Below, in pieces: positions 1,733-23,400 of a stretch of 24,000 nt of DNA. Origin of the DNA: Pseudomonas sp. CCC3.1 (GTDB taxonomy: Bacteria > Pseudomonadota > Gammaproteobacteria > Pseudomonadales > Pseudomonadaceae); the NCBI RefSeq assembly GCF_034347405.1, contig NZ_CP133778.1, forward strand, positions 4,362,275-4,386,274. The letters are read 5' to 3'. The notes beneath the pieces are model-generated. The model was not told the DNA's origin, did not search any database, and saw only the letters and a program-made list of their open reading frames with translations. Within the stretch, counting starts at the first letter, position 1. Each line of letters opens with the position of its first letter. Made by a program: the position numbers and the translations under genes.

Positions 1733-1755
1733 AAATGGTGTCAGAGGTAGCTCTC

Positions 1756-7068: not shown

Positions 7069-8369
7069 TTTCTAACCTCTCCCATGCCTCTGCTGGCCAC
7101 ATCTATTAAATAATCACGAGACTGGCGGTGGAGTGGAAGCGGGCCGGATTGACGCACCCATTTCGCGACATCCTCTGCGGGCAATCTGCGGGCTGCCAGG
7201 ATCATGGCCATCAGATCATCTCTGGCATTCGCATCCCGAACTACTGAAGTCAGATCCGCTCCTCTGGCATGGTACGCGGTGCCGTCCGTCATTCCGGCAG
7301 CGTGGAACGAGGCGCGTCGGATGACGCACGGGACGCACTTACCACACTGCTGGTATGTCCGCTTCCACTTACCACACGATACCGTTTCCGATGCTAGGAC
7401 CCTCAAGTTCGCTTGATCTAAACACCTAGAAAGCATCTCTCCCTTCGTCTGAAGCGCGTACGGATTCTCGACTCGTACAGGCAGGCCGACCGTATCCAGA
7501 ATTTTTTGGAATAGGCCCAAAAAATGTGGGTGCGTCGTCCTAGTACTCAACGCGCCAATGCGGCGAGCAGTCATTGGAGGGTTCAGCGCAATGAGCCCGT
7601 TCTCGGGAACGAAAAGTTCTACTGGTGTGCCAGTGACTCGTAGCTGCGCCAGTGTGGCCCCAACCAGTGCACCATAAGCGAGGAAATTGAAGCTTCGAGT
7701 GCGCATCTGCACATCGGTTTTTCTCCCAGTCAAGGACACCGGATTTGCCACCGCAGCGAATCTTGAGACCTCCACCGGTAGATGATCCCGAACCATGATT
7801 TGCTTTTCCGAGTCACCTCGATATGCATGACTTATCAACAATGGGCGTCTGCCCTCTGCTAATAAATTCAACGCTCCAATGCCGCTATCCATCCCCCCCG
7901 AGAACAAACTGACGCAATCGTGGCCGGCCATAACGGTGATGCGACCACGGTTCTGAGACGTGAGCTGTCTGGGTCCATCAGGCAATAGGATGATCTCCCA
8001 AAGATCGCCGCTTAAGAAATGCAGAGCCTTCTGTAAAAGCGGTATCGCGGCCTGCCAAAGTTGCGGATCAGCGATGGGGATGAATAAACGAAGGTCCCGG
8101 GCCCAACCATCATCAGCGTCTGCTTTATCAACAAAAGTATCTGCGGCTGTTACGGCCATGGCTATAGTCAACAAATCGAACCCGGTTCTACTGACCGGAG
8201 CACCCAAACGCCTCACTGCAGCGCGAACCGGCCCCCCTATAGAGCAAGTGCCCCGCGTCGGTGGGCGACTGCCGTACATCAGTACGGGAATTTCATTAGC
8301 CGTTTGCGAGCGAAGCTGATCAGCTTCGTGATGGAAAATGAGGTCTGTCACTCTTGGTATGCCTCCCAT
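7041..8369 (-). CDS. qatC: QatC, QueC-like PP-loop ATPase of the Qat anti-phage system
   Basis: The PP-loop is 'CVSLFSGGMDSGIGALNLL' (SGGxDS). The QueC-type 4-Cys zinc site is 'SCGKWKRTYQQCGKCVPCVIRR'. A roughly 150-aa N-terminal extension is typical of QatC rather than housekeeping QueC. The gene lies directly downstream of the qatA and qatB homologues. The start is either the ATG at 8369 or the GTG at 8351, which forms a GTGA overlap with the qatB stop. Confidence 0.85.
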   Translation of the reverse strand: MGGIPRVTDLIFHHEADQLRSQTANEIPVLMYGSRPPTRGTCSIGGPVRAAVRRLGAPVSRTGFDLLTIAMAVTAADTFVDKADADDGWARDLRLFIPIADPQLWQAAIPLLQKALHFLSGDLWEIILLPDGPRQLTSQNRGRITVMAGHDCVSLFSGGMDSGIGALNLLAEGRRPLLISHAYRGDSEKQIMVRDHLPVEVSRFAAVANPVSLTGRKTDVQMRTRSFNFLAYGALVGATLAQLRVTGTPVELFVPENGLIALNPPMTARRIGALSTRTTHPHFLGLFQKILDTVGLPVRVENPYALQTKGEMLSRCLDQANLRVLASETVSCGKWKRTYQQCGKCVPCVIRRASFHAAGMTDGTAYHARGADLTSVVRDANARDDLMAMILAARRLPAEDVAKWVRQSGPLPLHRQSRDYLIDVASRGMGEVRNYLWSLGLL

Positions 8370-9100
8370 TCACTCCACACTTCGCGGATGGCGGCCATCT
8401 GAATCTTTTCAATTTGTTTGCTGGAGAGCGCTTTCAGACTGCCTCCCAACAAGGGACGCATGTGCTTGTCGGTCACCGATTCAACGAGAGAGTACAGTTC
8501 CTTCTCGGCCTGCTCGACTTGGCCAGGTGATTCAGCTTTTGCGAACGCATCGTTCGAATCGAGCACTACTTGTCCAAACACGCATTTGGTGACGTACACC
8601 AGCATCATCTGTACAAGCATCTCGTCAGTGATGCTCGCGAAATCAAACTCTTGGTAACCCTCTAGGCATTCAGAAAGCGCCTCGTTCATCGCAACCCGAA
8701 CGCGATCAGAATCGCCGTCCTCGGTGGCAAGCGCCTGCACGATCATGTCGATAGCAATGTCCGTGTCCTGGCCGTTCAACGCAGCGAGATCCAGCCCCAG
8801 AGGGGAATGCCCTTCCCTCAATGTGGCCATCGCACCAAATAAGGCTCCACCGGCTCCGGCCATGGAGCCAAACCGGGCAGGTCCAATGCCACTGCCACCG
8901 GTTGCACCGCCTGCATAGCTGCTTATCGCAGAGCGAAGGTAATCGCCGTCTCCTGTCGAGACGAATCTCCCCAGATTTGTGCGGAAGTCTTTAAATCGCT
9001 GCGGAGGAGCCTCGGGTACCTGCTGCCCATCGGTGTCCACCCACCCAGGCACAAATGGAGAATTACCCCCAGGCCCTTTGCTTGACGTAGAGGTTCCCAT
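8348..9100 (-). CDS. qatB: QatB-like protein (250 aa, Gly/Ser-rich N-terminal third)
   Basis: The call rests on position, between the KAP ATPase and the QueC-like gene. A TAATG overlap with the qatA stop lies at 9098-9102. The N-terminus is MGTSTSSKGPGGNSPFVPGW, followed by a Gly-rich segment (GGATGGSGIGPARFGSMAGAGGALFG) and an acidic helical C-terminal half. No enzymatic motif was found. Confidence 0.65.
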   Translation of the reverse strand: MGTSTSSKGPGGNSPFVPGWVDTDGQQVPEAPPQRFKDFRTNLGRFVSTGDGDYLRSAISSYAGGATGGSGIGPARFGSMAGAGGALFGAMATLREGHSPLGLDLAALNGQDTDIAIDMIVQALATEDGDSDRVRVAMNEALSECLEGYQEFDFASITDEMLVQMMLVYVTKCVFGQVVLDSNDAFAKAESPGQVEQAEKELYSLVESVTDKHMRPLLGGSLKALSSKQIEKIQMAAIREVWSEWEAYQE

Positions 9101-10896
9101 TACTTCTTCTCCCGCTCCTTGTACCAGCTCGCGCCCTTAAGCTTGCTGCTGAGCCAAGGCCGAATTTTGTCCGGCATTACGGTGTGAATGAAGTCCGATA
9201 GCAGCGCACCGGCTTCGGGTGACTTCTCGGCAAGCAACTGCGCACCGTCAAAGCCGACTGGCTTGCTTGTCCACTCAGAATGCGACCGCATCGATTCAAT
9301 TAACTGGGTCATGACGGCCGCGTGCTCACCACCGGATATGGTTTGTAGAGCAGCTTTTGCAGAAGGTGACGAGGTGTTGGACGTCCGTTTGAGCACAGCA
9401 AGCGCTTCAGCCGCATCAGCAGAAAGACCTGCGCGCAATACCCGTAAGGGAGTGGTTTCCCTGCTCAGATAAACGACCGGACGAAGGTCTACAGTCGAAA
9501 GCTGCGGTTCGAGCCTGATCCAATCTCGCACGAGGTCTACTTTGGTCCATAAATCCGGACAAGCCTCCGTAAATTTCACGGGGTCTTCCAGTAGTCCCTC
9601 CAGTTCGGCCAACACTTCAGGTTTGCCGCCGGCAGCACTATTTATCATCGAGTAAAGATGGGCGACCGCTTTCTCCTCCATGCAACGCTCAAAAAGAGCT
9701 ACCTTGGCGATTAGGGCCTCGTTTACAGGCATTTCACGCAGTGCTGCTACCCGTACCCTCATTCGAACGACGTTGAGCATACGCTTCACGATTCTGGGGT
9801 TACCCAACACGGAGCTGGAGCTTGCGAGCATTGGCGCAATTCGATCAGCAATCGGAAAAGCTTCGGCAACTTCCACAGGCACATTAGAGCCCAGCAACTC
9901 TAAGGCCCTCTCTGTGCTGATGGGTTCGTCTCTCCATGCCTTGCGCAAGTTATCTTCAAGCCCGACTCTCAAGGCCTCGATGTGCTCGCCAGGGACCTTG
10001 TTACCGGCCGAGGCAAACAGCATGAATAGGTACGCCCGAACCTCCTGAACGCCCAACCTTGGCACACGAACAGGCACTTGAATAAGTTTATCCAAGTAAT
10101 CAGTCACATGACGATCACCAGGATCTTTGAAATGCTCACTGACCGAATGGCGAACCATCTCCTCATCTGCCGCCACGACAAAAGCCGTATGGTTCATGAA
10201 GAGGAATAGACGCAGAGCCTCCAAGGTATGGATCGTCTGCTTGGGCAAGCAGCGATCTAAGTTGTCGACAAAAACGACCAACGTTTTGTCGAGACCGATG
10301 AGGACATTTGAAAACTCCTTTCGGAACGCCTCGATCTGTTGGGGGGGAGTTTGCTGCTTTTCTGGGCCAAGCAGCCCGGTAAAGCTGTCCTTCGCCTTAC
10401 CACCTTCATCTTTGAGAGTTCCTAACGAGTCATGATCCGCTTCACCGGAAAAGAGCTTCCCCAGAGCCTCCACCCCTTTCGCACCAAAACCGAAAGCTGG
10501 CATACCCAAAGCAAGCGCTCCGCCTTCGACCATAAGACCAAGCATTCGCATTTTGTTTGCCCGCGCAAAAAGCTTCTTCGCTTCAGGAAGAAAGCTGGTT
10601 TCTTCGGCAGCGTCGATAAGAGTGGAGGCGATGATCTCCATCAGCGCGGCGCGGGAGTCATCGAAGCCCTGATACAACCAGGCGTCAAAACGAACGACGA
10701 CGAATTCAGACGCTCCCCGAGGAGGGTTCAGTCCATGCTCGATCAGATTGAGCAGCGTGGACTTCCCAGTACCCCAGGAACCGAACACGCCTATGGTAAC
10801 CGGACGCATGGACGGATCACGGATGACGTCCACAACCAGATCCGCCACTTCTGAGTAATTCAGAAAATCGCTTTTTGTATCGACATCAGCCCACAT
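9100..10896 (-). CDS. qatA: QatA, KAP-family P-loop NTPase
   Basis: A strong RBS AAGGAGG sits 5 nt before the ATG at 10896. Walker A is 'GVFGSWGTGKSTLLNLI', followed by 'VVRFDAWLYQ'. Walker B is 'VVFVDNLDRCLP'. A hydrophobic, Gly-rich insert (MLGLMVEGGALALGMPAFGFGA) lies between them, where KAP NTPases carry their membrane insert. Confidence 0.88.
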   Translation of the reverse strand: MWADVDTKSDFLNYSEVADLVVDVIRDPSMRPVTIGVFGSWGTGKSTLLNLIEHGLNPPRGASEFVVVRFDAWLYQGFDDSRAALMEIIASTLIDAAEETSFLPEAKKLFARANKMRMLGLMVEGGALALGMPAFGFGAKGVEALGKLFSGEADHDSLGTLKDEGGKAKDSFTGLLGPEKQQTPPQQIEAFRKEFSNVLIGLDKTLVVFVDNLDRCLPKQTIHTLEALRLFLFMNHTAFVVAADEEMVRHSVSEHFKDPGDRHVTDYLDKLIQVPVRVPRLGVQEVRAYLFMLFASAGNKVPGEHIEALRVGLEDNLRKAWRDEPISTERALELLGSNVPVEVAEAFPIADRIAPMLASSSSVLGNPRIVKRMLNVVRMRVRVAALREMPVNEALIAKVALFERCMEEKAVAHLYSMINSAAGGKPEVLAELEGLLEDPVKFTEACPDLWTKVDLVRDWIRLEPQLSTVDLRPVVYLSRETTPLRVLRAGLSADAAEALAVLKRTSNTSSPSAKAALQTISGGEHAAVMTQLIESMRSHSEWTSKPVGFDGAQLLAEKSPEAGALLSDFIHTVMPDKIRPWLSSKLKGASWYKEREKK

Positions 10897-11226
10897 CTGA
10901 GCCTCCTTGCTTGCGGAGCATCCCTTGCTTACGAGCTGGACTTACTGCCACAGACACGCAGCATCGCTTTCATAACCGCCATCATTCGTTAAAAAGCGAT
11001 TCAATGCCACTATTTCGACATCTAGTGAATAACACCCCTTCCTATAAGTCCGTCGGGCCGTATAGTCGTAGGCAAAAGCTCAGGAAAGAGAAAACGTAAA
11101 GCAGAACGAGCGGCGGCATGAAAGCCGGGATCTGTAGATATCGTGCATACCATACTGACATCGGCAGTAGCGCCACTTGCAGTAAGCAGAACAATTTAGC
11201 GGACGCCCAGAGGAGTTTCGGGATCA

Positions 11227-11270
11227 GACTAGATCGATGCCGCGTGCAAGCGCGCGACATCGATCTAGTC
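11227..11270 (-). terminator. Hairpin downstream of the MTase-helicase operon (possible terminator, no U-tract)
   Basis: GACTAGATCGATG (11227-11239) and CATCGATCTAGTC (11258-11270) are exact reverse complements. They enclose a GC-rich 18-nt loop that can pair further. The hairpin starts 23 nt after the stop of the 11293-12483 gene on the minus strand. Confidence 0.35.
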
Positions 11271-11292
11271 ATCGTTTACCTCATCAGTGTCT

Positions 11293-12483
11293 TTAGCTGA
11301 CCAGGCGAGCCGAGTGGGGATCGTAGACCATTTCGGTAATTGACCCATCTCGGATGCGCTCAACCGCTTCATCAATCACATGCAGCGGCACCAGGAACCA
11401 CTCCCTAGGTCTGACTGGATGGCCGAAGCGGTCTTCGATGGTCAAGTCCAGCTGCGCTGCGCCGAACAGGCGGTGGAAGATGTTTTCCAGCCGGGTGCGG
11501 TTCAGGTTGTGAAGCTTGTAAGTTGCGACCACTTCCACATCGGCCAGCAGGTAGGTGGCATCTTTCGCCGCCGCCGCGATACGCGTTTCCACTCGGCCAC
11601 CGGTTACGCCGATCTTGTGGATCAGCTCGCGGTGCTCGGCTACGTAGGGATGGTTGGACCGGCTGCGTAACACATAAATGGTGCCAGTCTCGATGTCGTC
11701 CGGCTCGGTTATGTCGCTGAACAGTGGGCCAGAGTCTACCTTGATGATCCGAGACCCTGCACGCCCGTCACCGTCTTTGTAGAGCGCCCGCTGCAAGGAT
11801 CGTAGTAGCAGATCGCTTTCTGTCTCATTGGAGTAGATGACCCGCAAACGACCATTCGTCTCCGCATTCGGCGTCTTGTAGGTGTCTCCCACCTCGGCGA
11901 CATAGGCAATGAGTCCGCTCAGAATGAAGAAGTCCCCGACCTCGATGCTGGCGTTCTTGCCAAAGGGCTTGGTTACCCATAGTTTTTGCTTGAGGCCTGC
12001 TTCCACCTCGTCAAACAGTGGCTTAAATCTCTCGAAGTCTTTACATGGGTTCCGGGCGGCAATTTCTTCTGCCGCTTTTATTGCCGCACTGGAACGCACA
12101 TGCCGCAGCACGGTGATATCGTCCTGGTCGATGGACTCACTGCCGATGCCCAGCTCGGCGAGCAAGGCGTCCTCATCCAGGTCATTCACATTTACCGTGG
12201 CTACCACAGAACCTGACAGTAGGCCGTGACTATCTAAGCCTGCCAGTAGGGCTTGTGCTTCCGGTAACTTGCGAAGCTGATCCAATCGCACGGCGTACAA
12301 GCGCTCGAAAATGTCGCGGTCTTCGCCATGTAGTGGGGCGCGGCCATGGGTCTGATAGAAGCGCCGAATGTCCTCAAAGCCAGCGAAGATGCGTTCTTCG
12401 CGAGGGGTTCGAGTGGCTGTATTTAGCGAGGGTACTTCTACCCCTAGCGCATCCAGTAGGTCGTCATCGTTCATCTTAGCCAT
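11293..12483 (-). CDS. T5orf172 / MUG113-type (GIY-YIG-superfamily) domain protein with a roughly 280-aa uncharacterised N-terminal region
   Basis: The C-terminal domain reads 'GTIYVLRSRSNHPYVAEHRELIHKIGVTGGRVETRIAAAAKDATYL...VVATYKLHNLNRTRLENIFHRLF...REWFLVP', which matches the T5orf172 pattern (IYVLR...KIG.T...R). The chosen start is the ATG at 12483 (MAKMNDDDLLD), which overlaps the helicase stop as ATGGCTAA. The longer ORF from 12600 would run 125 nt into the helicase gene. Confidence 0.85.
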   Translation of the reverse strand: MAKMNDDDLLDALGVEVPSLNTATRTPREERIFAGFEDIRRFYQTHGRAPLHGEDRDIFERLYAVRLDQLRKLPEAQALLAGLDSHGLLSGSVVATVNVNDLDEDALLAELGIGSESIDQDDITVLRHVRSSAAIKAAEEIAARNPCKDFERFKPLFDEVEAGLKQKLWVTKPFGKNASIEVGDFFILSGLIAYVAEVGDTYKTPNAETNGRLRVIYSNETESDLLLRSLQRALYKDGDGRAGSRIIKVDSGPLFSDITEPDDIETGTIYVLRSRSNHPYVAEHRELIHKIGVTGGRVETRIAAAAKDATYLLADVEVVATYKLHNLNRTRLENIFHRLFGAAQLDLTIEDRFGHPVRPREWFLVPLHVIDEAVERIRDGSITEMVYDPHSARLVS

Positions 12484-14593
12484 TAGTGGATTCTCCCTGT
12501 GCCGCTTTGGCTTGGGCACGGTAACGTGCGAACGCAACCACGCCTTCAGCCATTCGTTTCTCCCAGACATCGGCGGAGTTGATGTCTGGCAGCCGGCCAC
12601 GCTCGTTTTTGAACTGCAGGGCGCGCATTGCTAAGTCTCGTGCTTCGCTTTCAGGAATGCTCACCTTCTTGGCTGCAATGCTGGCCTGCACCTGGCGCAG
12701 GGATTTTTCATCCATCGCCTTAGCCAGCACCGCATAGGCGGCTTCAAAAGGGTTGATGCGGTCGATCAGATCAATATCTAGCTCGCGCACGTTGACGAAT
12801 TTGCGCACGCCTTCCAGCAGAGACGTACTGCCTTGTAAGGCGCCACTCTCGCTGGCATCGGTCTGAGCCAACATCAATTTGGCCTGTTGGGTAATGTTCA
12901 TGGCTGCGATGGCATGCTGACGGATTGCTTCCTGGTCGACGTCGCTCAAGTCGGGGTAACGCTCGCGCACGATCTTGCCCATGCGCAGTTGGGTCAGCTC
13001 TTCGGGTAGGGTGTTTTCCTTGTCGAATAGGCCGCGTTCCAGCACGGTTTTGTCCTGCAGGAAGCTGGTTACCACTTCGTTCAAATCTTCTTTGCAGATG
13101 CGCGAGGCTTCTGTGCTTTGCGGCGTGGTCAGACCGTTGATTTCGACATGGTACTGGCCTGTGGCTTCATTCACGCCCAGATTGGTGCCACCTGATTGAT
13201 AGCCCTCGCCACCGTTGTAAATGAAACCGTCTTTCGGCCCGGTATCTTTCGGACTGAACTCATAGCGCGGGGCGAGCACCTGTTCCATCAGCAGGCTGGC
13301 GGAAATGGCCTTAAGCATATCGTTCACTGCTTCGGCTACAGCCGCTTGGTCGGCCATAGGCTCAGCGATCAGGTTGGTGAAGCGCGAGCGCTCCTTGCCC
13401 TCCGCATCACGCGTGGCGCGGCCAATGATTTGTACAATTTCGGTCAGGCTCGAACGGTAGCCGATGGTCAGCGCATGCTCGCACCAGATCCAGTCGAAGC
13501 CTTCCTTCGCCATGCCCAGTGCGATGATCACATCCACGTTGTCGCGGTTGTTCTTCTGCGCAGGGTCTTTCAGTGCACTGAGCACTTTGGAGCGCCTGGA
13601 CGCGTCGCTGTCATCCACCAGGTCTGCCACTTTCAGCGTGCGACCGTCCTTGGCTTTGATGAGGTGGAAGCCGGTGGCCGGGTCGACACCCTGCCAATCG
13701 CCCAGCGCACTCATGATTTCGTTGACCTCGCGCTCCTTGTCTTTGAGGCTTTCGCGGGCATTCACATTGGGGATATGGATGATGGTTTTCAGTGCTGGGT
13801 CCAGCACCTTGGCGACGGCATCCACATACTTGCCGGTATAGAAGAAGTACCCGATGTCCAGCGACTTGAGCCAGCGGTAGCCGTTGAGCTGCTCGTAGTA
13901 GGTGTAAGTCACCGTCTCAAACTTGGCTTCTTCCGCCGGGGCCAGCACGGCCTCGCTGTCGCCACGGAAATAAGAGCCAGTCATGGCCACCAAATGCACT
14001 TTATCGCGGCCGATAAACGCACTCAGTTGGCCGCCCAACTTGTTGTCCGGGTTGGCGGAAACGTGGTGGAATTCGTCGATGGCGATTAGGCGGTTGTCGA
14101 AAGCTTCGATACCTAGCTCTTCTACGGCAAAACGGAAGGTGGCATGGGTGCAAACCAGTGTCTTGTCGGTGCTTTTCAGGAAAGCGCGTACGGCTTCCAC
14201 CTTGGATTTGGCCACGCGCGGCTCATCGATGCCAGGAGCATTACATAGGTTCCACTGCGGAGCCACTTGCCAGTCCCAGTAAAAACCAAACTTGCTCAGC
14301 GGCTCATCGGCGAAGCTGCCGCCAATGGAGCGCTCCGGCACCACGACAATTACCTGTTGCAAGCCCTGGTTATGCAGCTTGTCCAGCGCGATAAACATCA
14401 GGGCGCGGGACTTACCTGATGCAGGGGGCGACTTGATCAGCAGGTACTGTTCGCCGCGCTTGGTATAGGCGCGCTCCTGCATGGTACGCATGCCCAGCTC
14501 ATTGGCTTTGCTGGAAGCCCCGGTGTGCGCCGTGGTGATGGATACCGATGGCACCGTGTAAGTGTTGGTTGGGTTGTGGTTCTGTTCGGTCAT
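12476..14593 (-). CDS. SF2 DEAD/DEAH-like helicase (705 aa)
   Basis: Walker A is 'IKSPPASGKSRALMF'. Motif II is 'LIAIDEFHHV'. Motif III-like is 'MTGSYFRGD'. Motif VI is 'VQIIGRATRD'. A roughly 250-aa helical C-terminal extension follows. There is an ATGA overlap with the upstream gene at 14590-14593. Confidence 0.9.
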   Translation of the reverse strand: MTEQNHNPTNTYTVPSVSITTAHTGASSKANELGMRTMQERAYTKRGEQYLLIKSPPASGKSRALMFIALDKLHNQGLQQVIVVVPERSIGGSFADEPLSKFGFYWDWQVAPQWNLCNAPGIDEPRVAKSKVEAVRAFLKSTDKTLVCTHATFRFAVEELGIEAFDNRLIAIDEFHHVSANPDNKLGGQLSAFIGRDKVHLVAMTGSYFRGDSEAVLAPAEEAKFETVTYTYYEQLNGYRWLKSLDIGYFFYTGKYVDAVAKVLDPALKTIIHIPNVNARESLKDKEREVNEIMSALGDWQGVDPATGFHLIKAKDGRTLKVADLVDDSDASRRSKVLSALKDPAQKNNRDNVDVIIALGMAKEGFDWIWCEHALTIGYRSSLTEIVQIIGRATRDAEGKERSRFTNLIAEPMADQAAVAEAVNDMLKAISASLLMEQVLAPRYEFSPKDTGPKDGFIYNGGEGYQSGGTNLGVNEATGQYHVEINGLTTPQSTEASRICKEDLNEVVTSFLQDKTVLERGLFDKENTLPEELTQLRMGKIVRERYPDLSDVDQEAIRQHAIAAMNITQQAKLMLAQTDASESGALQGSTSLLEGVRKFVNVRELDIDLIDRINPFEAAYAVLAKAMDEKSLRQVQASIAAKKVSIPESEARDLAMRALQFKNERGRLPDINSADVWEKRMAEGVVAFARYRAQAKAAQGESTNG

Positions 14594-15651
14594 TGCGAGT
14601 CGTCGTCCATGGATGCGTCATCACTTGCCAGCTCGCGCTCGATCTGTTCGATGCTGGGCAGGCTGGTTTGCAGCTCTGCCGGCAGGGATTCCACCAATTG
14701 GTATTCGGCCACGCCAATGGGGCGGGCGTTATCGCGCAAGGCATATTCGGCCACTACCTTGTTCTTACTCTTGCACAGCAGCAGGCCGATGGTGGGACCG
14801 TCCTGTGGGTGCTTGAGCTGGGCATCCACTGCGGTGAGGTAAAAACTTAACTGGCCCAGGTGCTCGGGCTTGAACTTACCGGCCTTGAGTTCGATCACCA
14901 CATAGCAGCGCAGCTTGAGGTGATAGAACAGTAGGTCGATGAAGAACTCGTCACCGCCCACATCCAGCAACACTTGCTGGCCAACGAAGGCAAAACCTGC
15001 GCCCAGTTCCAGCAGGAACTCGGTGACATGCTTGACCAGAGCGTTTTCGATCTCACGCTCCTGCGCATCAAAGGTCAGGCCGAGGAAGTCGAAGCGGTAA
15101 GGATCCTTCAGCGACTCGCGGGCCAGGTCGGACTGCGGTTTGGGCAGGTGGTTCTCGAAGTTACTGACTGCCTTGCCACTGCGCTCCAGCAGACGAGTCT
15201 CGATCTGCATCACCAGAATGTTGCGCGACCAGTTGTGCTCGATGGCCTTGGCGGCATACCAGCGGCGGGTTTCGGGGCCAGGCAGTTTGTCCAGCAGCAC
15301 CAGATTGTGACCCCAAGGCAATTGTGCAGCAGCCTGCTGCACAAATTCCGCATCCGGCCACGCCTCGGCAAAGGCGCGCATGTACTTGAGGTTGCGTGGC
15401 GAAAACCCTTTCATATCGGGAAAGGCTGCGCGCAAATCCTGCGCCAAGCGCTCGATTACCTTGGCACCCCAGCCCTGTTGTGCTTGCCGGGTCAAAATAT
15501 CGTGACCGATCTGCCAGTAGAGCAGCACTAATTCGCGGTTAACCGCCAGTGTGGCGCGCTGCTGGGCATTATGAATACGGCCTTTGAGGCCGATCAGCCA
15601 GTCGCTGTAGCCCTCGGGTGGCATGCTCAGGCTAATAGGGGTGTCGCTCAT
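14590..15651 (-). CDS. YhcG/DUF1016-family PD-(D/E)xK nuclease-fold protein
   Basis: The N-terminus 'YSDWLIGLKGRIHNAQQRATLAVNRELVLLYWQIGHDIL' is the typical DUF1016 opening. The C-terminal core 'FFIDLLFYHLKLRCYVVIELKAGKFKPEHLGQLSFYL' has the D...ExK motif. There is an ATGA overlap with the MTase stop at 15648-15651. Confidence 0.88.
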   Translation of the reverse strand: MSDTPISLSMPPEGYSDWLIGLKGRIHNAQQRATLAVNRELVLLYWQIGHDILTRQAQQGWGAKVIERLAQDLRAAFPDMKGFSPRNLKYMRAFAEAWPDAEFVQQAAAQLPWGHNLVLLDKLPGPETRRWYAAKAIEHNWSRNILVMQIETRLLERSGKAVSNFENHLPKPQSDLARESLKDPYRFDFLGLTFDAQEREIENALVKHVTEFLLELGAGFAFVGQQVLLDVGGDEFFIDLLFYHLKLRCYVVIELKAGKFKPEHLGQLSFYLTAVDAQLKHPQDGPTIGLLLCKSKNKVVAEYALRDNARPIGVAEYQLVESLPAELQTSLPSIEQIERELASDDASMDDDSQ

Positions 15652-18416
15652 GCCTTTCTCCCTCGTGGCTTTTTCGGCGCGGCCTTCGCTGCGTTTGCCG
15701 CCATCTTGGTATAGAGGTCAAACAGCTTTTCCAGCCGTTCGGTATCGTTCTTGAAACGACGACCAATATAGATGCGCTCCAGCACTTCATCGTTGCACTC
15801 GTGAGCTCGACGCAGGTTATCCGGCATATTATCCGGGTCGTACAGGTCGGCGATGGCGGCGGGGAAATGCGCTTCGCGGGCCAGCAGGATGGCTTCGGCG
15901 CAGGCGGTCAGGTCGGCTTTATTCTGCTCGGTGAGCAATGGCACGGGGAAAGTATTCCAACCGAGGGTGTTCGAGTACGAAAAATCGGTACGCATTCGCA
16001 CGCAGACCGCACCAATCCAGGCCCAATGCAAGCGTGAGGCGATGAGGGCCATGTTCCAGAGCGGGGCGTCGTAAAGGGCGAAGCATTTATTAGAAATGAT
16101 GGATTGGTTGTCTAATAAATCAACTGGCAAGTAGCTTCTGTTCTCCGAAGATACAACAGGAATGGCGAAGAAATAGTTTTCACAGCTTCGCATCTCACGA
16201 AACTGATGCGGCCTTTTAACCATGCCATTGGATACGGCATCTTTTGATGTCTGTCGCGCAGCCTTGCCTTGTTCCAGCTTCTTCTTGATATCTGCAATCT
16301 CAAGAATTTCCGCTGCCGGATCATCAGGAAACCAGAAGCAAGCACGCGGTCTGGCTTTGGTAACTTCTGATGCACCATAGAATTTTCGTATAAACGCAGC
16401 ATCCAACCCTGCATTCAAATATTTATTCTTTCCTTCCGTATCAAAAATCAAATGCTCTGACATGCCGTAGTAGTTGCCCTTCAGCATCGGGGGGATGACC
16501 GAAATCGGGCGGGATGATGGCATAACCCAATAGTCATCTGCCGGCATCAGGTACGCATTGATGTTCTTAGTCGAAAGTTTTTTGTCATCATCGTAAAGGT
16601 CTGCGGACGCCGCTTGTACCCCAGCACCGATGCAGACAACGGTAACTCCAGCATCGTTTGTCGCCAGGTTGCTCCACTTGAAAGAACGAACTGCAAAGTT
16701 GAATTTCAATCCGTCGTCGAAAAGCGGCTTCCAAAAGCCTGTTACGTGTTGTCCTTGAGAAACGCTGTTCGTTGCCACAAAAGCAAATTTCGCCCGTGTT
16801 TGCTTTGCATATTCGTGAGCTTTGAAGAACCAGCCACACACATAGTCAAGTAAGCCCCATCCATCAACCTTCTTATCGAGCAAATCGCCCATGTCTTTCT
16901 TTTGCTCGGCAGTTTTTTTTGCGTTTCCTTTGTACGGCGGGTTACCACAGATATACGTTTCCCCTCCCTCATTCTCAAAATCGATCTGAGCCTGATCCAG
17001 TGGGGTTGCAAACAAATCATTGGCGTGAAGTTTCACGCCCGTGCCCGTTGGCGGGCAGATATTCAGCCAGTCCAGCCGTAGCGCATTACCGCAAACGATC
17101 CAGTTTTGCGAATCCAGCGGCAGAAACTCTTCTAGTGCATCCTTCTGGCCACGATACAGCACGTCGCACTGGTACTCGGCAATGATGAGCGCCAGGCGGG
17201 CAATTTCCGCCGGAAAATCTCGCAACTCGATGCCACGGAAATTGGTCAACGGAATATCGCTGCCTAGATGAGGTTCTCCCCGACGACGATTAATTTCCGC
17301 CTCGATTTCGCGCATTTGCTTGTAGGCAATGACCAGGAAATTTCCGGAACCGCAAGCTGGGTCGAATACGCGGATGCGCGCCATGCGTTTGCGCAGATTA
17401 TGCAGCTTGGCCTTGTTATCGCCAGCCGCATCCAATTGGGCGCGCAGATCATCCAGTAGCAGTGGGTTCAACACCTTCAGGATATTGGGCACGCTGGTGT
17501 AGTGCATGCCCAATGCGCCACGCTCTTCATCATCGGCTACGGCCTGAATCATGCTGCCGAAGATGTCTGGGTTGATTTTCTTCCAGTTCAGGTTGCCGGC
17601 GTGCAGTAGATAAGTACGCGCCATGCGTGTGAAGCGCGGCACCTCGGTACTGCCGGAAAAAAGGCCGCCATTCACATAGGGGAAGCCGTTGGCCCAATTG
17701 GGCAGCCGGGGCTGAACAGTGGCACGCTCGGCCAGCTTGATGTTCATGGCTCGGAAAATTTCAGACAGCACCTGATGGGTGTTGGAGCCATCGCGTTCGC
17801 TGTACTGCTCAACCGTTTTGGTAAACAGGCCATCGCCATTAAAAATGTCGGTGTCTTCCGCAAAAAAGCAGAACACCAGCCGCGCCATAAAATGGTTCAT
17901 GTCGGCGCGGCGCTCGTCCTTGGCCCAGTCAGGGTCCTCGTTCAGCAGCTCGATATATAGCTTGTTCAGGCGGCTGGTGGCGCGCACGTCGATGGGGTTG
18001 TCCTTGATCTCCTTAATAGTGGAGATACCGGCCAAGGGCAACAGGAAGCCGAAGTGGTTGGGGAGGTCCGGGTAATCGCAGGTGATGGTTTCACCCGTGA
18101 TTAGCTCTTCGGCCTCAAGCGTTTGCCCGTCGGTGGCAAGGATGAACTTGGCTTTGGCTTTTGTGGTGGCAGGGCTGGCGCGCAATGCCTTGAGTGTTTC
18201 GCCTACGCTACCAGATTCGCATGCGGCGATATGGATGTTGCTGCGCAGTAGCACACCGCCGGGCACGTCGGAAGCGTTGTTGTTGCCGGCACGCAGGCGT
18301 TTTAGGGCGGTTTCCTTATTGCCAAAAGCGGCCAGGAAGACAAACGGAAATTCCACCGCGTCAAAGGGCTCAAGGGCCAGGTCCGAAATAGCGGACTCAA
18401 TTTCTACTGCATTCAT
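15648..18416 (-). CDS. Large (922 aa) class-I SAM-dependent N6-adenine DNA methyltransferase, gamma-class, with its own target-recognition region (YeeA-like)
   Basis: Motif I is 'RVFDPACGSGNFLVIAY'. Motif IV, downstream of it, is 'YICGNPPYKGN'. A long N-terminal domain (~350 aa) and a C-terminal domain (~400 aa) flank the core. No D..ExK nuclease motif was seen in the N-terminus. Confidence 0.88.
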   Translation of the reverse strand: MNAVEIESAISDLALEPFDAVEFPFVFLAAFGNKETALKRLRAGNNNASDVPGGVLLRSNIHIAACESGSVGETLKALRASPATTKAKAKFILATDGQTLEAEELITGETITCDYPDLPNHFGFLLPLAGISTIKEIKDNPIDVRATSRLNKLYIELLNEDPDWAKDERRADMNHFMARLVFCFFAEDTDIFNGDGLFTKTVEQYSERDGSNTHQVLSEIFRAMNIKLAERATVQPRLPNWANGFPYVNGGLFSGSTEVPRFTRMARTYLLHAGNLNWKKINPDIFGSMIQAVADDEERGALGMHYTSVPNILKVLNPLLLDDLRAQLDAAGDNKAKLHNLRKRMARIRVFDPACGSGNFLVIAYKQMREIEAEINRRRGEPHLGSDIPLTNFRGIELRDFPAEIARLALIIAEYQCDVLYRGQKDALEEFLPLDSQNWIVCGNALRLDWLNICPPTGTGVKLHANDLFATPLDQAQIDFENEGGETYICGNPPYKGNAKKTAEQKKDMGDLLDKKVDGWGLLDYVCGWFFKAHEYAKQTRAKFAFVATNSVSQGQHVTGFWKPLFDDGLKFNFAVRSFKWSNLATNDAGVTVVCIGAGVQAASADLYDDDKKLSTKNINAYLMPADDYWVMPSSRPISVIPPMLKGNYYGMSEHLIFDTEGKNKYLNAGLDAAFIRKFYGASEVTKARPRACFWFPDDPAAEILEIADIKKKLEQGKAARQTSKDAVSNGMVKRPHQFREMRSCENYFFAIPVVSSENRSYLPVDLLDNQSIISNKCFALYDAPLWNMALIASRLHWAWIGAVCVRMRTDFSYSNTLGWNTFPVPLLTEQNKADLTACAEAILLAREAHFPAAIADLYDPDNMPDNLRRAHECNDEVLERIYIGRRFKNDTERLEKLFDLYTKMAANAAKAAPKKPRGRKA

Positions 18417-18795
18417 GATTTACCACTGCCCAGATCGCGTATGAACGAGTACGGCGAATTAAGCCGTTAATTTTGCGGATGATGACTAGGCCACTTGAGT
18501 GCTTCAACCTTCGTGCCGGCCACGGTCTGACATGATAACCCCGATAGCCTCGAACAAGGTCGTATCGCGTGTGGCGACAGCGGAGCTACTGGAGCGGCGA
18601 TGGCAGCATTGCAGCTGGATCACAGGAGTGACAGAAGAAAAACTTAACTCAATTCTGGAGTTTAGTGGGGATAGCACGTTTGGGCTAAGCGCAGAGCGAG
18701 TCACGGTGATGCAGCAGTTCGTTCATGGCCAGCCATCCGGTGATTCGTTCAGGGCAGAAAATTTAGGAGGTGGTCACACATCGGGTTAGAGCGGA

Positions 18796-20088
18796 TCAAT
18801 TCCGGAATAGGTTTTCACGGTGCCATGTCAGATAGGAGCGATGGCGCGGCTCGATCTGCCGTAACCTCAATGCAGGGCTCAAATGGAGCGCCGCCGCTGT
18901 CGCTGCATCTACTTCAGGGCTCAGCAAAATGTCGCCATCGTCATCAAAGCTGATCAAGCCTTGATCAAAGGCCAAGTCGAGGTTAGGGGTCAGAAGCAGT
19001 CCATTGAACTGATCAAGTCGCTCGGCATGGTTCGCTGACCGCCAAGGCTTGATATGCGAGGCACGCAGCAATTGGGGAATGGAGCACTCGGTTACTGAGC
19101 AACCGCCCCAATAAGCCACAAGGGAATCGCGATAACGGCTTTGACCGATACGAGCTTTGATCAAAGCGTCTCGCTCTGTGTCAGTCAGAGCTACCTCACC
19201 CAGATCGATAGTCATCGCAGCCGGCGTAGCCGGCATAGCTGGCACTTCGTCAGGAAGGGACTCGTGACCAAGCAGAGATTGGACAAGAGCATTCATTGCT
19301 GCAGTGTCACGAAAGCCAAAAGCAATCCCATAGTTTATGGGCGTAGTGCCGCTATGGAGGCGCTTGGGAAAACCACGCAGGTTGCTGTTGTGGTAGTAAG
19401 GCTCCGCTGGACGCTCGACACCGGTTATCTCGGACCATTCGACAAGCTTTGAAGCATGCATGGGATGCAACACCAACGGTGCACGCGTCGATTGACCTGC
19501 CCCCCTCTTGACATAAATCGGCTCATCCAACGCTGGATGCATCAGGCGGAATACTTTGTTTCCCGGCAAGGGTGTCAAAACAAATCCCGCTTGTTCGAGA
19601 CCGCTTACGATCTGTTCAACGGTTAGCGCATGCCCGTTGAACTGGCCAGGCACAGGTGAGGCCGTTGAGAACGGCTCTCCATTCGCGGATTGATCAAGCG
19701 AGTACTCGTTGGGCCATTTGACAACACGGTTCTTAATTGGATATGTCTTCAAAAAGCCTGGCGCTTGCAAACGCGCCAGCGCGGGTTTTCCGACTGCCTC
19801 CCAAGGGGTGTCAGCGCCAGCAACGAGGCGTGAGAAGCTGATGATGGGCCCGTTTTTCTGCGCAATTATCCAGGCGAGACAGGCTTCTGCGCGATCACGG
19901 GTACCGCTCTTGTTGCCCAAGCGTATCTGGCCATCTGCGATGATCCATAGGTCGAGACCTGAGTCATGCACCGCCAGTACAAACTCGGCGAAATCATCAC
20001 GGACGGCCGTAGGCCAGTCTGCGGCAAGAATTGAAAAGGGTGAGCTGCGCTCGAATTTTTTGACAACATCTTGCAATGACGTACTCAT
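18796..20088 (-). CDS. HNH_2-family endonuclease with a roughly 300-aa uncharacterised N-terminal domain (candidate Type IV / modification-dependent nuclease)
   Basis: The C-terminus 'RIGQSRYRDSLVAYWGGCSVTECSIPQLLRASHIKPWRSANHAERLDQFNGLLLTPNLDLAFDQGLISFDDDG' matches the HNH_2 (PF13391-type) pattern (Q..FR...CA+TG......AAHIKPW......NGL.L...+H..FD.G). The preferred start is the ATG at 20088. The 20109 start in the ORF track is a TTG. Confidence 0.85.
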   Translation of the reverse strand: MSTSLQDVVKKFERSSPFSILAADWPTAVRDDFAEFVLAVHDSGLDLWIIADGQIRLGNKSGTRDRAEACLAWIIAQKNGPIISFSRLVAGADTPWEAVGKPALARLQAPGFLKTYPIKNRVVKWPNEYSLDQSANGEPFSTASPVPGQFNGHALTVEQIVSGLEQAGFVLTPLPGNKVFRLMHPALDEPIYVKRGAGQSTRAPLVLHPMHASKLVEWSEITGVERPAEPYYHNSNLRGFPKRLHSGTTPINYGIAFGFRDTAAMNALVQSLLGHESLPDEVPAMPATPAAMTIDLGEVALTDTERDALIKARIGQSRYRDSLVAYWGGCSVTECSIPQLLRASHIKPWRSANHAERLDQFNGLLLTPNLDLAFDQGLISFDDDGDILLSPEVDAATAAALHLSPALRLRQIEPRHRSYLTWHRENLFRN

Positions 20089-20149
20089 TTTCGTTCCCTG
20101 AAAGGGCAATATCGAATGGCCACACCCTAAGCAATCCAGCTACAAACGT

Positions 20150-20419
20150 CTACAGCTTCGATACATCGTCGAGAACGCGTATCGGCATGGAATCAAGCAG
20201 CTTGAGCAGCACACAAGTCGGCTGCGGCCAGAGGTATGCATCGATGCAACTCCATGACGCCTCGCGCGGCGGCTCTATTTGCATACCCTCCAGCAGAAGT
20301 AGCTGTTCCCGGCAAGCGCCGGCAGAGAGACGATATGTAATCTCACAAGACACGTCCATAGTGTGGTCCTGTACAGGTAAAGTATTCGCACATATGTAGG
20401 CGCCGAAGCGCCAGAACAT
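20150..20419 (-). CDS. Possible 89-aa protein translationally coupled to the RecQ-UvrD helicase gene
   Basis: Its ATG (20419-20417) shares one base with the helicase TAA stop (20421-20419), giving TAATG. The composition is non-repetitive, with 6 Cys and 3 Trp. The overlapping plus-strand ORF (20076-20399) is Ser-rich and looks like an antisense artefact. There is no homology evidence. Confidence 0.35.
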   Translation of the reverse strand: MFWRFGAYICANTLPVQDHTMDVSCEITYRLSAGACREQLLLLEGMQIEPPREASWSCIDAYLWPQPTCVLLKLLDSMPIRVLDDVSKL

Positions 20420-23400
20420 TACCTCGGCGTCCCGCTGATTCTAGGAATCACCACCTCCCACATGTCCATTTTCAGAGCAGGTCGAAACTGCAGATCAGCC
20501 TCATCGGCATACCGGGCGATTATCCCTTCCACATGACACTGGTCTATCTCTACGTTCGCTTTGAAGTTTTTCGCAGTACGACCAACGACTCGCCCTTGGG
20601 CGTCCTGAAGCAAGTACCGCTCGCCATCGCGCGTGAGCAGAAGGGGGTGGCCCGTTTGTAGTTCGGCGATCGCCCGGTGTATCTGATGCGTCGCAGTGCT
20701 TCTGCCGGCAAAGCCGATGTCTACGTCAGCCAGCGAAAGCTGAATGTAGGTGCGAGACAGTCGTGGATCGAAATCGCCGGAAAAGCTTTGTACCAAGGCA
20801 CCGTGTGAAAGCTTGGGACTGAAAGGATTTCCGGACTCGAACTCTCCCAAGGTCAATGTTTGTTCCGCCCGCGTCATGCCAACGTAGTAGAGGCGGCGAT
20901 CGGCATTCAAGTTTTGAGATGTGCTGCTCCAGGCGCCGTCCAGCAATCCGACATGGCGAAACTCCAGGCCTTTGGCGGAATGTACGGTGCCAAGGTACAA
21001 GCCCTGCCTTCCTTGTTTGCGAAGTGCCCGCGGGTACTCGTATAACCAGTCGATGATTGACTGTGAAGACAGCTGGCATTCGCCCATTTCCTGAACAAGG
21101 CACAGGAGGGCTGTTTCAAAGAACTCTTGCCAGTGCGGATCATCCAGGCTCGGCCGAAGCGTAGAGATGACCTCCGTCGCCGTCTGAGGCTGCTCGATCA
21201 AGCGTAAACACCCTATCCCTTTCAGGAAGCCCCGCTGGCGCGTTAAAGGGATTGAGTCCTCATTCTCGGAGGCGAGAAAATAAGGGACCTCGTTGAGTTC
21301 GCACCAGGCTTGGACCGGTTTGAGATAGGCATGAGTTCGGCCCAGTATCGCGCATCCGTTCCAGGTGCCGTTTTCCTCCAGTGAAATAAGCCGCGCCAGC
21401 TCAGCCGCCATAGCTTGAGCCTGTAGGTTGCCATTGGACCGGTCAGCAAAAGGAAGCTGGATTCGCAGCACCTTACCCGCCCGGGACGGATCTCTCGCCT
21501 CCCATTGCCCACCTGCGGGTAGCTCCCGGCGAGCCTTGTCGATGGTGATGGGATGATCTGCCTTCATCCGGCCTTCAGTTTCCCCGATCACCCGGTTCGA
21601 CGAATTGATGATATTGGCGGACGAACGATAGTTATCCACCAAGTAGGTGACGCTGGCATCGTAGTTGTCGCGGAACTGCTCGATGTACTGATTGCTGGTA
21701 TGGCGCCAGTCGTAAATATTCTGATCGTCATCACCAACCGCCAAAATGCATAAGCGCCCGTCCTCTTCTGCATTGCGCCCAGCCAACGCACTGACTAGTC
21801 GGTACTGCATCTCATCAATGTCCTGGTACTCGTCAACCATGATGTAACGGTAGCCACGCAGCAGTTGCTCGCATAAGTTGTCCTCACCGGTCGCCCGACC
21901 ACCCTCCTCCAGCAAGTGCACCGCATCGGTGATTACCTGAGTCAACCGCTTCTCATCGACGGGCTCACCGCGCTCGAAGCGGGTGCCGGTCAATCGCATC
22001 GACATCGCGTGGTAGGTCAGTACGCTGACACCGTAAGCATCGGCTCCAACCAATGCTAACAAGCGCTTGCGGATTTCATTGGCCGCATGCCGGTTGAATG
22101 CCAAGGCAATGATGCTGCTGGCGGGTACTCGGCGCACGCGCAACAAGTAAGCAATCCGATGGACGATGACACGTGTCTTGCCAGACCCTGGACCGGCCAG
22201 AACTAATCGGTTGACGTCATCGTTGTCGGCAACGACCAATCTCTGGACGGTACTCAAGCAATGGGTGATGGCCTTCCAAGACTGCTCGCTGGTTGCGAGT
22301 TTCAGAACTTCTTCGCGCTCATTGAAATATTCTTTGATGAAGTCACGCTTGGGGTTGCCAAAGTACGCCAGTACCAGCCTGAGCGCCGGTTCCATGTCAT
22401 GGATTCCGCGCTCGGCATATTCACGCATGACATGCACCTGAACACATTTTTCCCGGTAATGTTCATCGAGCTTCGCGTAATCGTCCTTGTAAAACCCCAC
22501 CTTCTTTTCAGCCTTTTCGCCGTCCACTTTGATTGTCATCGCACGCCGCATGACGGTCATACCGTGGTTCAGAGTCAGGATTTCCTGCTGGTGCATATAC
22601 AACAGCACGTGCTCCACCGCTCTGCGAAACTGACCTGCCGGCATCGTGGATTTCAAGACCAGATCGCCCTCAAGCGTGGCGACCAGCTTGCCAAAGGTGG
22701 TATCGACCATCAGGTCGCGGGCTCGGGCACCCGGTGGAAGTTGGGAGATGAGGTAATTAAGCAGCAGCGTTGCAATGGTGCGGCGTTTCTCACCAAACGC
22801 ACTGATACGCTTCCAACTATGACGGCCGGTAAAGCGCAGCTTCAAATGATCACGATTGATCGGGCGAATTTCGAAGGTGCTGCGCTGTTGGCTTTCACCG
22901 TCGCGATCCTGGGCCAGACTCTTGAGCAGCCTGAGTACCTGAATGGGATTCACATCGTCGCGCTCCAACCTGGCCTTCAATGCGGTGTTGAGCTGGGAAA
23001 GGTTGATGTCTTGCCATTCACCATTTTCTGCATCTGGCGAGAGTTCAGGCAGCAACTCGAACAATGCCTTTTCAAGTTCCAGCGATTGCATGAGCCGCTG
23101 ATTGGATGAGCCGACGATGCCATGCCGGACAAACACCGTCAGCTGAGAATCATTGATCAGGATTCCCATCTGCTCCATCTGCTTCAAGGCCCCGGCAACC
23201 TCCTCCAGCGACTGGCCGGTAAGCGTCATGAGTTCATCGGTGTTGATGCGTTGGTCGGCCTTGGCCTGAAAAAGGTAGTTGAGGATTGCCTTGAATTCGG
23301 CAAACCTGCGTTGGGGGAGTTTCGCCTCCACGAGACGCGCCTGCGATTCTTCAAGGGTGAGCGCAGCGCGGGCGGGAAAGATACGCGTCTGGTTTTCTTC

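Follow-up and report, generated by a model that had tools for sequence, protein, structure and literature searches.

A YeeABC-type restriction-modification-like module with an embedded YhcG gene in a defence island of Pseudomonas sp. CCC3.1

The YeeABC family and the Pseudomonas locus

The homologues of the restriction-modification (R-M) enzyme MmeI include a second set whose members lack the PD-ExK nuclease motif, are unlike MmeI over their first ca. 100 residues and “invariably” adjoin two further genes, one for a DEAD helicase like YeeB and one for a GIY-YIG protein like YeeC (Morgan et al., 2009, PMC2731913). When expressed alone, neither YeeA nor a homologue from Moraxella had endonuclease activity, and it was proposed in the same work that the MmeI-like subunit provides specificity and one-strand modification and that its N-terminal domain engages the separate helicase and nuclease, a link to the Type I enzymes. 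We have analysed a locus of this kind in a stretch of 24,000 nt from Pseudomonas sp. CCC3.1 (assembly GCF_034347405.1, contig NZ_CP133778.1, positions 4,362,275-4,386,274 of the forward strand), to which we refer as the window. Between its positions 11293 and 18416 lie four overlapping open reading frames (ORFs), all on the minus strand, for an MmeI-like methyltransferase (MTase), a YhcG protein, a superfamily 2 (SF2) helicase and a T5orf172 protein. We consider it likely that they represent a YeeABC-type, three-component, ATP-dependent R-M-like defence module in which the YhcG gene is embedded as cargo; we are almost sure of the family, and far less so of the details of the mechanism.

The best known member is that of Bacillus subtilis, in which YeeA (DnmA) produces N6-methyladenine (m6A) at GACGmAG (Nye et al., 2020, PMC7261158), on one strand of an asymmetric 6-bp site. 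The order dnmA-yeeB-yeeC is conserved across species, and the YeeB and YeeC of B. subtilis lack C-terminal stretches that are found in the Vibrio proteins (Fernandez et al., 2023, PMC9973331). In Vibrio crassostreae 7F1_18, inactivation of yeeAB made the bacterium sensitive again to one group of phages (Piel et al., 2021, bioRxiv 10.1101/2021.05.05.442762). In the later literature on yeeA/B/C, and on T5orf172 with helicase and methyltransferase in defence, we found nothing that names the system or solves its mechanism. The original prediction made for this DNA had pointed to a likeness to the B. subtilis yeeA-yeeB-yeeC cluster, and the literature confirms it. It had also presented the system as new and functionally undescribed, which has to be corrected: the class, with the same division of labour, was set out in 2009, and both the methylation by DnmA and the phage resistance conferred by yeeAB have been described.

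The genes of the locus are as follows:

15648-18416, minus strand: gene 1, MmeI-like MTase, 922 aa
14590-15651, minus strand: gene 2, YhcG, 353 aa
12476-14593, minus strand: gene 3, SF2 helicase, 705 aa
11293-12483, minus strand: gene 4, T5orf172 protein, 396 aa from the ATG at 12483

The automatic ORF listing extends the start of gene 4 to a GTG at 12600. Read directly from the sequence, the junctions are ATGA between genes 1 and 2 (15648-15651), ATGA between genes 2 and 3 (14590-14593) and ATGGCTAA between genes 3 and 4 (12476-12483), the start/stop overlaps that had been predicted, and every one of the peptide motifs that had been listed for the four proteins was found in the translations. 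With its MmeI homology, its missing PD-ExK motif, a co-oriented helicase gene downstream and a T5orf172 gene right after it, the locus has these features of the YeeABC class. It shares with the B. subtilis cluster, the second set of MmeI homologues and the yeeAB locus of Vibrio the gene order, the orientation, the horizontally acquired defence contexts and the proposed division of labour. It differs from B. subtilis in the YhcG gene placed between MTase and helicase and in the length of the two partner proteins, which are reported to be C-terminally shorter in B. subtilis whereas those of the window (705 and 396 aa) are full length. Besides, the target recognition domain (TRD) of the window differs even from those of its closest relatives.

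The conserved three-gene core

Relatives of the helicase are encoded in at least 590 stretches of species-representative genomes (one genome per species, scanned with the helicase), and the best 80 loci, with helicase identities of 69-93%, were kept. They come from Pseudomonas, Stutzerimonas, many Burkholderiales, Xanthomonadales, Acinetobacter, Sphingomonadales, Caulobacterales, Acidobacteriota and Armatimonadota. The presence of the MmeI-like and T5orf172 genes was scored by tblastn with the four window proteins, and a second set consisted of 54 IMG/VR loci with helicase identities of 40-92%. An MmeI-like gene lies upstream of the helicase in 74 of the 80 genome loci, always co-oriented, the remainder being mostly at contig ends. 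The T5orf172 gene follows the helicase directly, with no gene between, in 76 of 76 loci; the gap has a median of -8 nt, equal to the 8-nt overlap of the window, and is at most 289 nt. Among the IMG/VR loci, 43 of the 54 have the MmeI-like match and the others end within 1.5 kb upstream, the gene order being held down to 40% helicase identity. Thus the order MmeI-like, helicase, T5orf172 is kept across 134 related loci, and the helicase-nuclease junction is uninterrupted.

The module also occurs on plasmids, the helicase matching 266 PLSDB records, 154 of them nearly over its full length. The triad carries the RefSeq label [quoted passage not shown] on Pseudomonas fluorescens pG20 (helicase identity 93%) and on a plasmid of Ligilactobacillus salivarius (43%). 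A search of the helicase against 1.84 billion cluster representatives gave 2610 matches at E <= 1e-3 and 457 at E <= 1e-30, and about 25-30 of the 150 listed cluster matches are full-length helicase representatives. Pairwise ratios of nonsynonymous to synonymous substitutions (dN/dS) are 0.05-0.10 for the helicase, 0.08-0.15 for the T5orf172 gene, 0.14-0.17 for the MmeI-like gene and 0.11-0.17 for YhcG, values that indicate purifying selection on each of the four. In the Firmicutes copy on L. salivarius p1 (locus L082:3286-5985) the helicase and GIY-YIG genes are intact, and the annotation splits the MmeI-like gene into three: two short coding sequences named “type IIL restriction-modification enzyme MmeI” and one “DNA methyltransferase”. 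The split could be a disrupted N-terminal domain, or a frameshift due to sequencing or phase variation.

By its homology gene 1 is a full-length MmeI-family (YeeA/DnmA-like) gamma-class N6-adenine MTase with a fused TRD. Pfam recognizes all five MmeI domains along it: MmeI_N at 1-159 (2.4e-30), MmeI_hel at 172-253 (1.6e-25), MmeI_Mtase at 329-608 (1.4e-109), MmeI_TRD at 626-827 (3.6e-69) and MmeI_C at 831-907 (1e-16). The match to MmeI itself (PDB 5HR4, E = 4.9e-115) covers residues 89-909 and begins only at residue 89. The motifs FDPACGSGNF (351-360) and NPPY (492-495) are present, and the S-adenosylmethionine-binding and NPPY motifs are conserved in 63 sequences. The exclusion of a Type IIL relationship by the original prediction does not survive this comparison. 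Of the Pfam families that had been expected, those of genes 2-4 are as foreseen, and gene 1 departs from expectation in carrying MmeI domains in place of a plain N6 MTase.

The N-terminus is a different matter. We confirmed residues 1-144 of MmeI against the 5HR4 chain, which locates its catalytic D70 and E80-M-K82. A profile of residues 1-170 built from 15 N-termini aligned only over 86-117, with MmeI 105-136 (hmmsearch and hhalign), and no counterpart to the D70/E80/K82 segment could be aligned in the first ca. 85 residues of gene 1. No conserved (D/E)xK is found in residues 1-170 across the 15 homologues either, so that the claim of an MTase N-terminus free of a PD-(D/E)xK motif is upheld. 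Those first 85 residues are nonetheless highly conserved within the subfamily (MNAVEIE..., with invariant D50 and H62, and D96 further on). The PADLOC model REase_MTase_IIG (PDLC03598) matches gene 1 end to end (1.2e-262) in spite of the missing nuclease motif, and thus standard annotation would report a Type IIG enzyme complete in itself and give no annotation to the genes for the helicase and the T5orf172 protein. PADLOC holds no multi-gene model for the set and no models for genes 3 and 4; it would name gene 1 Type IIG and gene 2 PDC-S02.

One part of gene 1 is far more variable than the rest:

16083-16927, minus strand: hypervariable segment of the MmeI-like gene, residues ~497-778, the MTase after NPPY and most of the TRD

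DNA similarity to more than 40 loci breaks just past the NPPY codons and resumes ca. 845 nt further on. At the protein level the mean identity to 62 homologues is 41% in the TRD vs. 76% in the N domain and 84% in the C domain, and the GC fraction is 0.476 at 16001-17000 vs. ca. 0.56 in the flanks. We infer that this segment is a swapped specificity cassette flanked by recombination break-points, and TRD diversification of this sort is how an active R-M-type system would be expected to shuffle its specificity. Gene 1 would then be the specificity and modification subunit.

Gene 3 has weak Pfam matches to DEAD, ResIII and Helicase_C and carries the helicase motifs ASGKS (within 56-64), DEFH (173-176) and QIIGRATR (388-395). 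Motifs I (KSPPASGKSR), II (DEFHH), III (AMTGSYFRGD) and VI (QIIGRATRD) are invariant in 80 sequences. Neither PADLOC nor NCBIfam has a family model for the helicase (all four proteins are without a specific NCBIfam model), and neither the helicase nor the T5orf172 protein has a solved relative in the PDB, searched with single sequences and with profiles of 26-27 homologues. A 93%-identical relative in UniRef is named “YeeB-like”; a named B. subtilis YeeB was sought among the cluster members of ten divergent helicase representatives, which bear only the generic name “DEAD/DEAH box helicase”. The AlphaFold 2 (AF2) model (mean predicted local distance difference test, pLDDT, 74) has a confident core of two RecA domains with a helical C-terminal extension, and the Foldseek matches include LlaBIII (rank 6, E = 4e-8) and EcoR124I HsdR near the top, with Pol theta, Brr2, RecQ and DEAD-box helicases at an equal E of ca. 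1e-8. We regard gene 3 as a YeeB-like SF2 helicase or translocase. The C-terminal extension, of ca. 250 residues (~450-705; 12476-13240), is conserved and mostly helical, holds invariant residues, e.g., NPF and ER.GR.P, and has a weak Pfam match to the pseudomurein-binding repeat at 644-670 (E = 0.0012, under the family cut-off). It could be an interaction surface.

Gene 4 is recognized through its C-terminal domain (267-378) by MUG113 (1.5e-12) and T5orf172 (1.3e-11), and its N-terminal region is conserved, with no family match in Pfam, PADLOC or NCBIfam. IYVLRS lies within 267-274 and KIGVTGG within 289-296, and across 76 sequences the motifs GtiYvLrS, HKiGvT, RI and eWf are either invariant or conserved to 90% or more. 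The homologues on plasmids are labelled “GIY-YIG nuclease family protein” in RefSeq. The AF2 model (pLDDT 57.5) gave no significant fold match, and weak matches to eIF5A-like and Slx1 folds were discarded as evidence. We regard gene 4 as YeeC-like, with a domain of the GIY-YIG superfamily, and it would be the cleavage subunit. The proposal of an R-M-type module made of a methylase, an SF2 helicase and a GIY-YIG-like nuclease is thus supported.

How does this core compare with the described R-M classes? It shares with MmeI and the Type IIL/IIG enzymes a homologous helical spacer, gamma-class m6A MTase, fused TRD and C-terminal domain and, likely, one-strand modification, besides the Type IIG score of gene 1 in PADLOC. 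It differs in that the catalytic D70/E80/K82 are absent or not alignable and in that gene 1 is constantly partnered with separate motor and nuclease genes instead of standing alone; a bifunctional Type IIL/IIG enzyme of the MmeI type was rejected on these two grounds. With the Type ISP (LlaGI, LlaBIII) and Type I enzymes it has in common the coupling of site recognition and m6A to an SF2 motor on double-stranded DNA and a nuclease and, with Type I, the hosting of embedded defence genes. However, a Type ISP enzyme is one polypeptide and here there are three, and Type I systems have an HsdS whereas here the TRD is fused to the MTase. In both of these classes the nuclease is an Mrr or PD-(D/E)xK domain fused to the motor, whereas that of the window is separate and of the GIY-YIG/T5orf172 type. 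We rejected Type I, as there are no HsdS or HsdR family matches and the helicase, with its weak ResIII/DEAD matches, has no nuclease domain. Type ISP was also rejected, given the separate ORFs and the fold matches to LlaBIII and EcoR124I HsdR, which are not discriminating, the one to LlaBIII being no better than those to unrelated SF2 helicases. Type III membership was considered and rejected too.

The junction between methyltransferase and helicase

Gene 2 is a complete YhcG protein, a PD-(D/E)xK nuclease, by Pfam (YhcG_C, 1.1e-63; DUF1016_N, 1.5e-45) and matches PADLOC PDC-S02 (PDLC04831) at 9.1e-171. Its motifs IDLLFYH (238-244) and VVIELK (251-256) belong to a pattern, IDLLF...ELK, that is conserved in 17 YhcG sequences. 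Both marks of PDC-S02 membership, the match to the hidden Markov model and the placement inside a modification-based system, are found here. The PDC families were defined as genes that lie inside BREX, DISARM and Type I R-M systems, and the HEC families as genes inside Hma (Payne et al., 2024, bioRxiv 10.1101/2024.01.29.577857). The original prediction had taken the four genes as one unit, and it is at this point that it fails. We scored the junction between the MTase and helicase genes in 72 of the 74 genome loci with an MmeI-like match, with the following outcome:

Direct junction (<=250 nt, mostly overlapping): 33 of 72 loci
Full-length YhcG: 16 of 72 loci
YhcG fragment only: 4 of 72 loci (L001, L004, L046, L049)
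Other inserts, 0.7-3.2 kb: about 20 of 72 loci

The other three genes are constant, and so the co-occurrence of families, which had been suggested as a check, holds for these three and breaks down for YhcG. At the direct junctions of L006 and L014 the MTase and helicase genes share an ATGA overlap. In the viral collection a full-length YhcG stands at the junction in 2 of the 43 loci with an MmeI-like match. YhcG was seen only where the helicase is at least 78% identical to that of the window, and across genome and viral loci at none with 75% or less. The remnants of YhcG are located as follows:

L001:7182-7550, YhcG residues 1-123
L004:7844-7933, YhcG residues 1-30
L046:7470-7865, YhcG residues 1-132
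L049:463-1038, YhcG residues 46-236

The module genes around the remnants are intact in L001, L004 and L046, and therefore the cargo decays or is deleted without loss of the module. At two other loci (L019:423-1490 and L048:1922-3040) YhcG is only 47-48% identical to that of the window vs. 78-85% for the helicases, which argues for repeated acquisition, or for replacement of the cassette.

One could think of a system of four obligatory components, with YhcG as a second and integral nuclease that acts together with the helicase and the T5orf172 protein. The gene overlaps both neighbours by ATGA and is hence co-translated with them, its D...ELK motif is intact and its dN/dS is low, and the arrangement recurs in the 16 genome loci and the two viral ones. 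We nevertheless find such a system very unlikely, since the MTase and helicase genes so often abut directly, unrelated genes may occupy the same place, the fragments stand beside a complete set of the other three genes, no YhcG accompanies the more distant helicases, and the PDC families are by definition embedded genes. The simplest reading is that YhcG is a facultative cargo gene, an independent and co-expressed defence candidate sitting in a recombination-prone slot, and would not be a core subunit; that it is optional follows from the direct junctions in 33 of the 72 loci, the four remnants and the about 20 loci with other genes. The most likely route of its entry is an exchange of cassettes between the conserved ends of the flanking genes.

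The other genes found in this slot are nearly always co-oriented with the module, and are the following:

Schlafen AlbA_2 plus HATPase_c_4 proteins, in at least 9 loci
GmrSD_N / HEC-05-like
RhuM (PDC-S05)
PDDEXK_4 (PDC-S26)
FRG (PDC-S15)
Septu PtuA
SoFic
IS200-type transposase, Y1 (L028:6475-6972)
Several proteins without a family

The transposase tells us that the content of the slot is not always a defence gene. Otherwise the picture is reminiscent of the guilt-by-embedding described by Payne et al. (2024), as the slot holds PDC-S02, PDC-S05, PDC-S15, PDC-S26, HEC-05, PtuA and SoFic in the orientation of their host. The hosts in that work were Hma, BREX, DISARM and Type I R-M, whereas here the host is a YeeABC-type module, unmodelled in PADLOC.

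There is another way in which such a slot might come about. Its genes, YhcG in our case, could be back-up effectors restrained by the complex of MmeI-like protein and helicase and released when an anti-restriction factor of a phage disables that complex, like PrrC in the EcoprrI Type I system, a precedent cited by Payne et al. (2024). Embedding does occur at one junction only (39 of 72 loci, with the helicase-nuclease junction interrupted in 0 of 76), the cargo is co-oriented and often overlaps both neighbours, and its families are those known from inside Type I R-M, BREX, DISARM and Hma. However, we have no sign of a physical or regulatory interaction, and homologous recombination at conserved gene ends, together with co-expression in the operon, gives the same pattern. 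The cargo families are structurally unrelated, which speaks against one common docking mechanism, and in L028 the slot also holds a transposase. We hold this guarding arrangement to be unlikely and keep to the reading of YhcG as independent cargo.

Genomic setting, possible mechanism and meaning

The module lies in a defence island, as had been predicted. At its edge a transfer-messenger RNA (tmRNA, ssrA) gene (1177-1568) is followed by a P4-type tyrosine integrase (1735-3012), and therefore the defence region is cargo of an ssrA-integrated genomic island. Next come DUF3987 and Integrase_1 genes, of which a convergent Integrase_1 gene ends at 6745, and at 7041-10896 are QatA, QatB and QatC (PADLOC E = 2e-226, 6e-88 and 8e-118). 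Downstream of QatC there is no ORF for the TatD-like QatD, and the small minus-strand ORFs there have no PADLOC match. On the other side, 18796-24000 holds two minus-strand genes upstream of the module, one for a 437-aa HNH_2 protein and one for a protein of more than 1191 aa with Helicase_C and then UvrD-helicase domains, which runs past the end of the window and has DpdF-, PsyrT- and GajB-like PADLOC matches. These two may form a separate two-gene defence system. A tmRNA match also lies near the copy of the module in Stutzerimonas tarimensis (L005).

DNA similarity to related loci spans exactly 11293 to ca. 18487, and therefore the module moves as one unit, between chromosomal islands and plasmids. 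Two features mark its limits:

18417-18487, minus strand: conserved leader upstream of the MmeI-like gene, ~70 nt, DNA similarity
11227-11270, minus strand: hairpin, -33.7 kcal/mol, z = -5.07 vs. shuffles, without a U-tract

A gap upstream of the unit had been given as 380 bp; it exists, and measures 379 bp (18417-18795). The similarity to L001-L005 reaches 18466-18488 and then ends, the rest of the gap not being conserved, and the leader of ca. 70 nt is probably the promoter or 5' untranslated region of the module. A consensus scan of 10800-19000 gave no sigma-70 promoter at its threshold and no excess of terminator-like sites over chance. The hairpin that had been predicted 3' of the last gene is present and strong. 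Its outer stem is a perfect 13 bp that continues inward, the arm sequence is unique in the window, and it is placed between the last stop codon of the module and the divergent-context Qat operon. It falls outside the DNA common to the related loci, where similarity ends exactly at 11293, and for this reason it is not part of the transferred module and was rejected as a component of it. It is likely a local terminator or insulator.

As to how the module works, the most likely mechanism is one closest to the proposal of Morgan et al. (2009), refined by analogy with other R-M enzymes. The MmeI-like subunit would read a short asymmetric site through its TRD and methylate one adenine on one strand, marking self. 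At an unmodified site the YeeB-like motor would be recruited or licensed by the N-terminal domain of this subunit, which is devoid of a nuclease, perhaps jointly with the conserved C-terminal domain. The motor would translocate along double-stranded DNA and bring the YeeC-like GIY-YIG nuclease for cutting. Since only one strand is marked, cleavage would probably require two unmodified sites in a defined relative orientation, following the logic of Type III and Type ISP enzymes, and freshly replicated host DNA would be spared. YhcG would be a co-transcribed and translationally coupled passenger with a defence activity of its own.

Several points weigh against the reading that we favour. For no member of the family is there a biochemical demonstration of DNA cleavage by YeeB and YeeC or of their interaction with the MmeI-like subunit. 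In B. subtilis the cluster neither restricted plasmid transformation nor defended against three phages, and was called a relic (Fernandez et al., 2023, PMC9973331). Deletion of dnmA there is not toxic, contrary to what one would expect of a classical R-M system (PMC9973331, PMC7261158), and the DnmA motif is not depleted in Bacillus phages (Fernandez et al., 2023, PMC9973331). Genes 3 and 4 are likened to the YeeB and YeeC of B. subtilis through published descriptions. The fold search with the helicase does not tell restriction motors from other SF2 helicases, and the T5orf172 model is too poor to confirm a GIY-YIG fold, so that this assignment rests on Pfam and motif conservation. Finally, the overlaps of YhcG with both neighbours and its purifying selection make a functional link to the module possible.

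The results from B. subtilis could be taken to mean that the whole module is a relic, the MTase serving as an orphan regulator of epigenetic kind and the genes for the helicase and the T5orf172 protein being non-functional leftovers. DnmA methylation does affect promoter activity, and the DnmA of S. mutans has likewise been described as an orphan. However, the latter two genes have a low dN/dS (0.05-0.15), and their catalytic-type motifs do not vary across 76-80 loci from several phyla. The module sits in a mobile defence island beside a tmRNA gene and on more than 150 plasmids, its TRD is diversifying as in active R-M systems, and the Vibrio homologue defends against phage; the missing C-terminal stretches, moreover, are reported for the B. 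subtilis YeeB and YeeC. A relic is, in our opinion, highly improbable.

The same results, namely that Bacillus phages do not avoid the DnmA motif and that dnmA can be deleted without killing the cell, are also consistent with a methylation-guided defence that involves no site-directed DNA cleavage. It could take the form of a BREX-like exclusion, or of abortive infection in which the helicase and T5orf172 protein are a toxic effector and the MTase gives the self/non-self information. Cleavage has never been demonstrated, and the MTase domain has weak similarity to PglX and DrmMI. These last matches arise through the MTase fold only, and membership in BREX, DISARM or Hma was rejected; among the four proteins and seven neighbours scanned with PADLOC there are no PglZ, BrxC/BrxL, DrmA/DrmB or HmaC partners. 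The motor is always coupled to a conserved nuclease of the GIY-YIG type, and the architecture parallels that of the Type I and Type ISP enzymes, which cleave. We therefore judge a defence without cleavage to be distinctly unlikely, and the YeeABC-type, R-M-like module with YhcG as its cargo remains the reading that we prefer.

In terms of what is new, the three-gene family has been known since 2009 and the four-gene architecture that had been proposed does not hold. The new point is a modest one: as in Type I R-M, BREX, DISARM and Hma, defence genes are embedded in a YeeABC-type module, at one junction only, and the presence of such genes supports a role of the module in defence. It does not constitute a new category of system, and is a further host in which guilt-by-embedding can be used for finding candidates. 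If the slot genes were after all guarded effectors, the junction would be a dedicated effector slot, and the activity of YhcG would depend on the state of the MmeI-like/helicase complex; effectors would fire when a phage disables or evades methylation-based restriction, a generalized PrrC/EcoprrI arrangement. The YeeABC-type module is widespread, and current tools label its nuclease-less subunit as Type IIG and overlook the two partner genes. The copy in the window is intact, full length and under purifying selection, which makes it suited to reconstituting a “split Type ISP-like” enzyme, one in which a reader of the MmeI type would be combined with a motor of its own and a nuclease of the GIY-YIG type.

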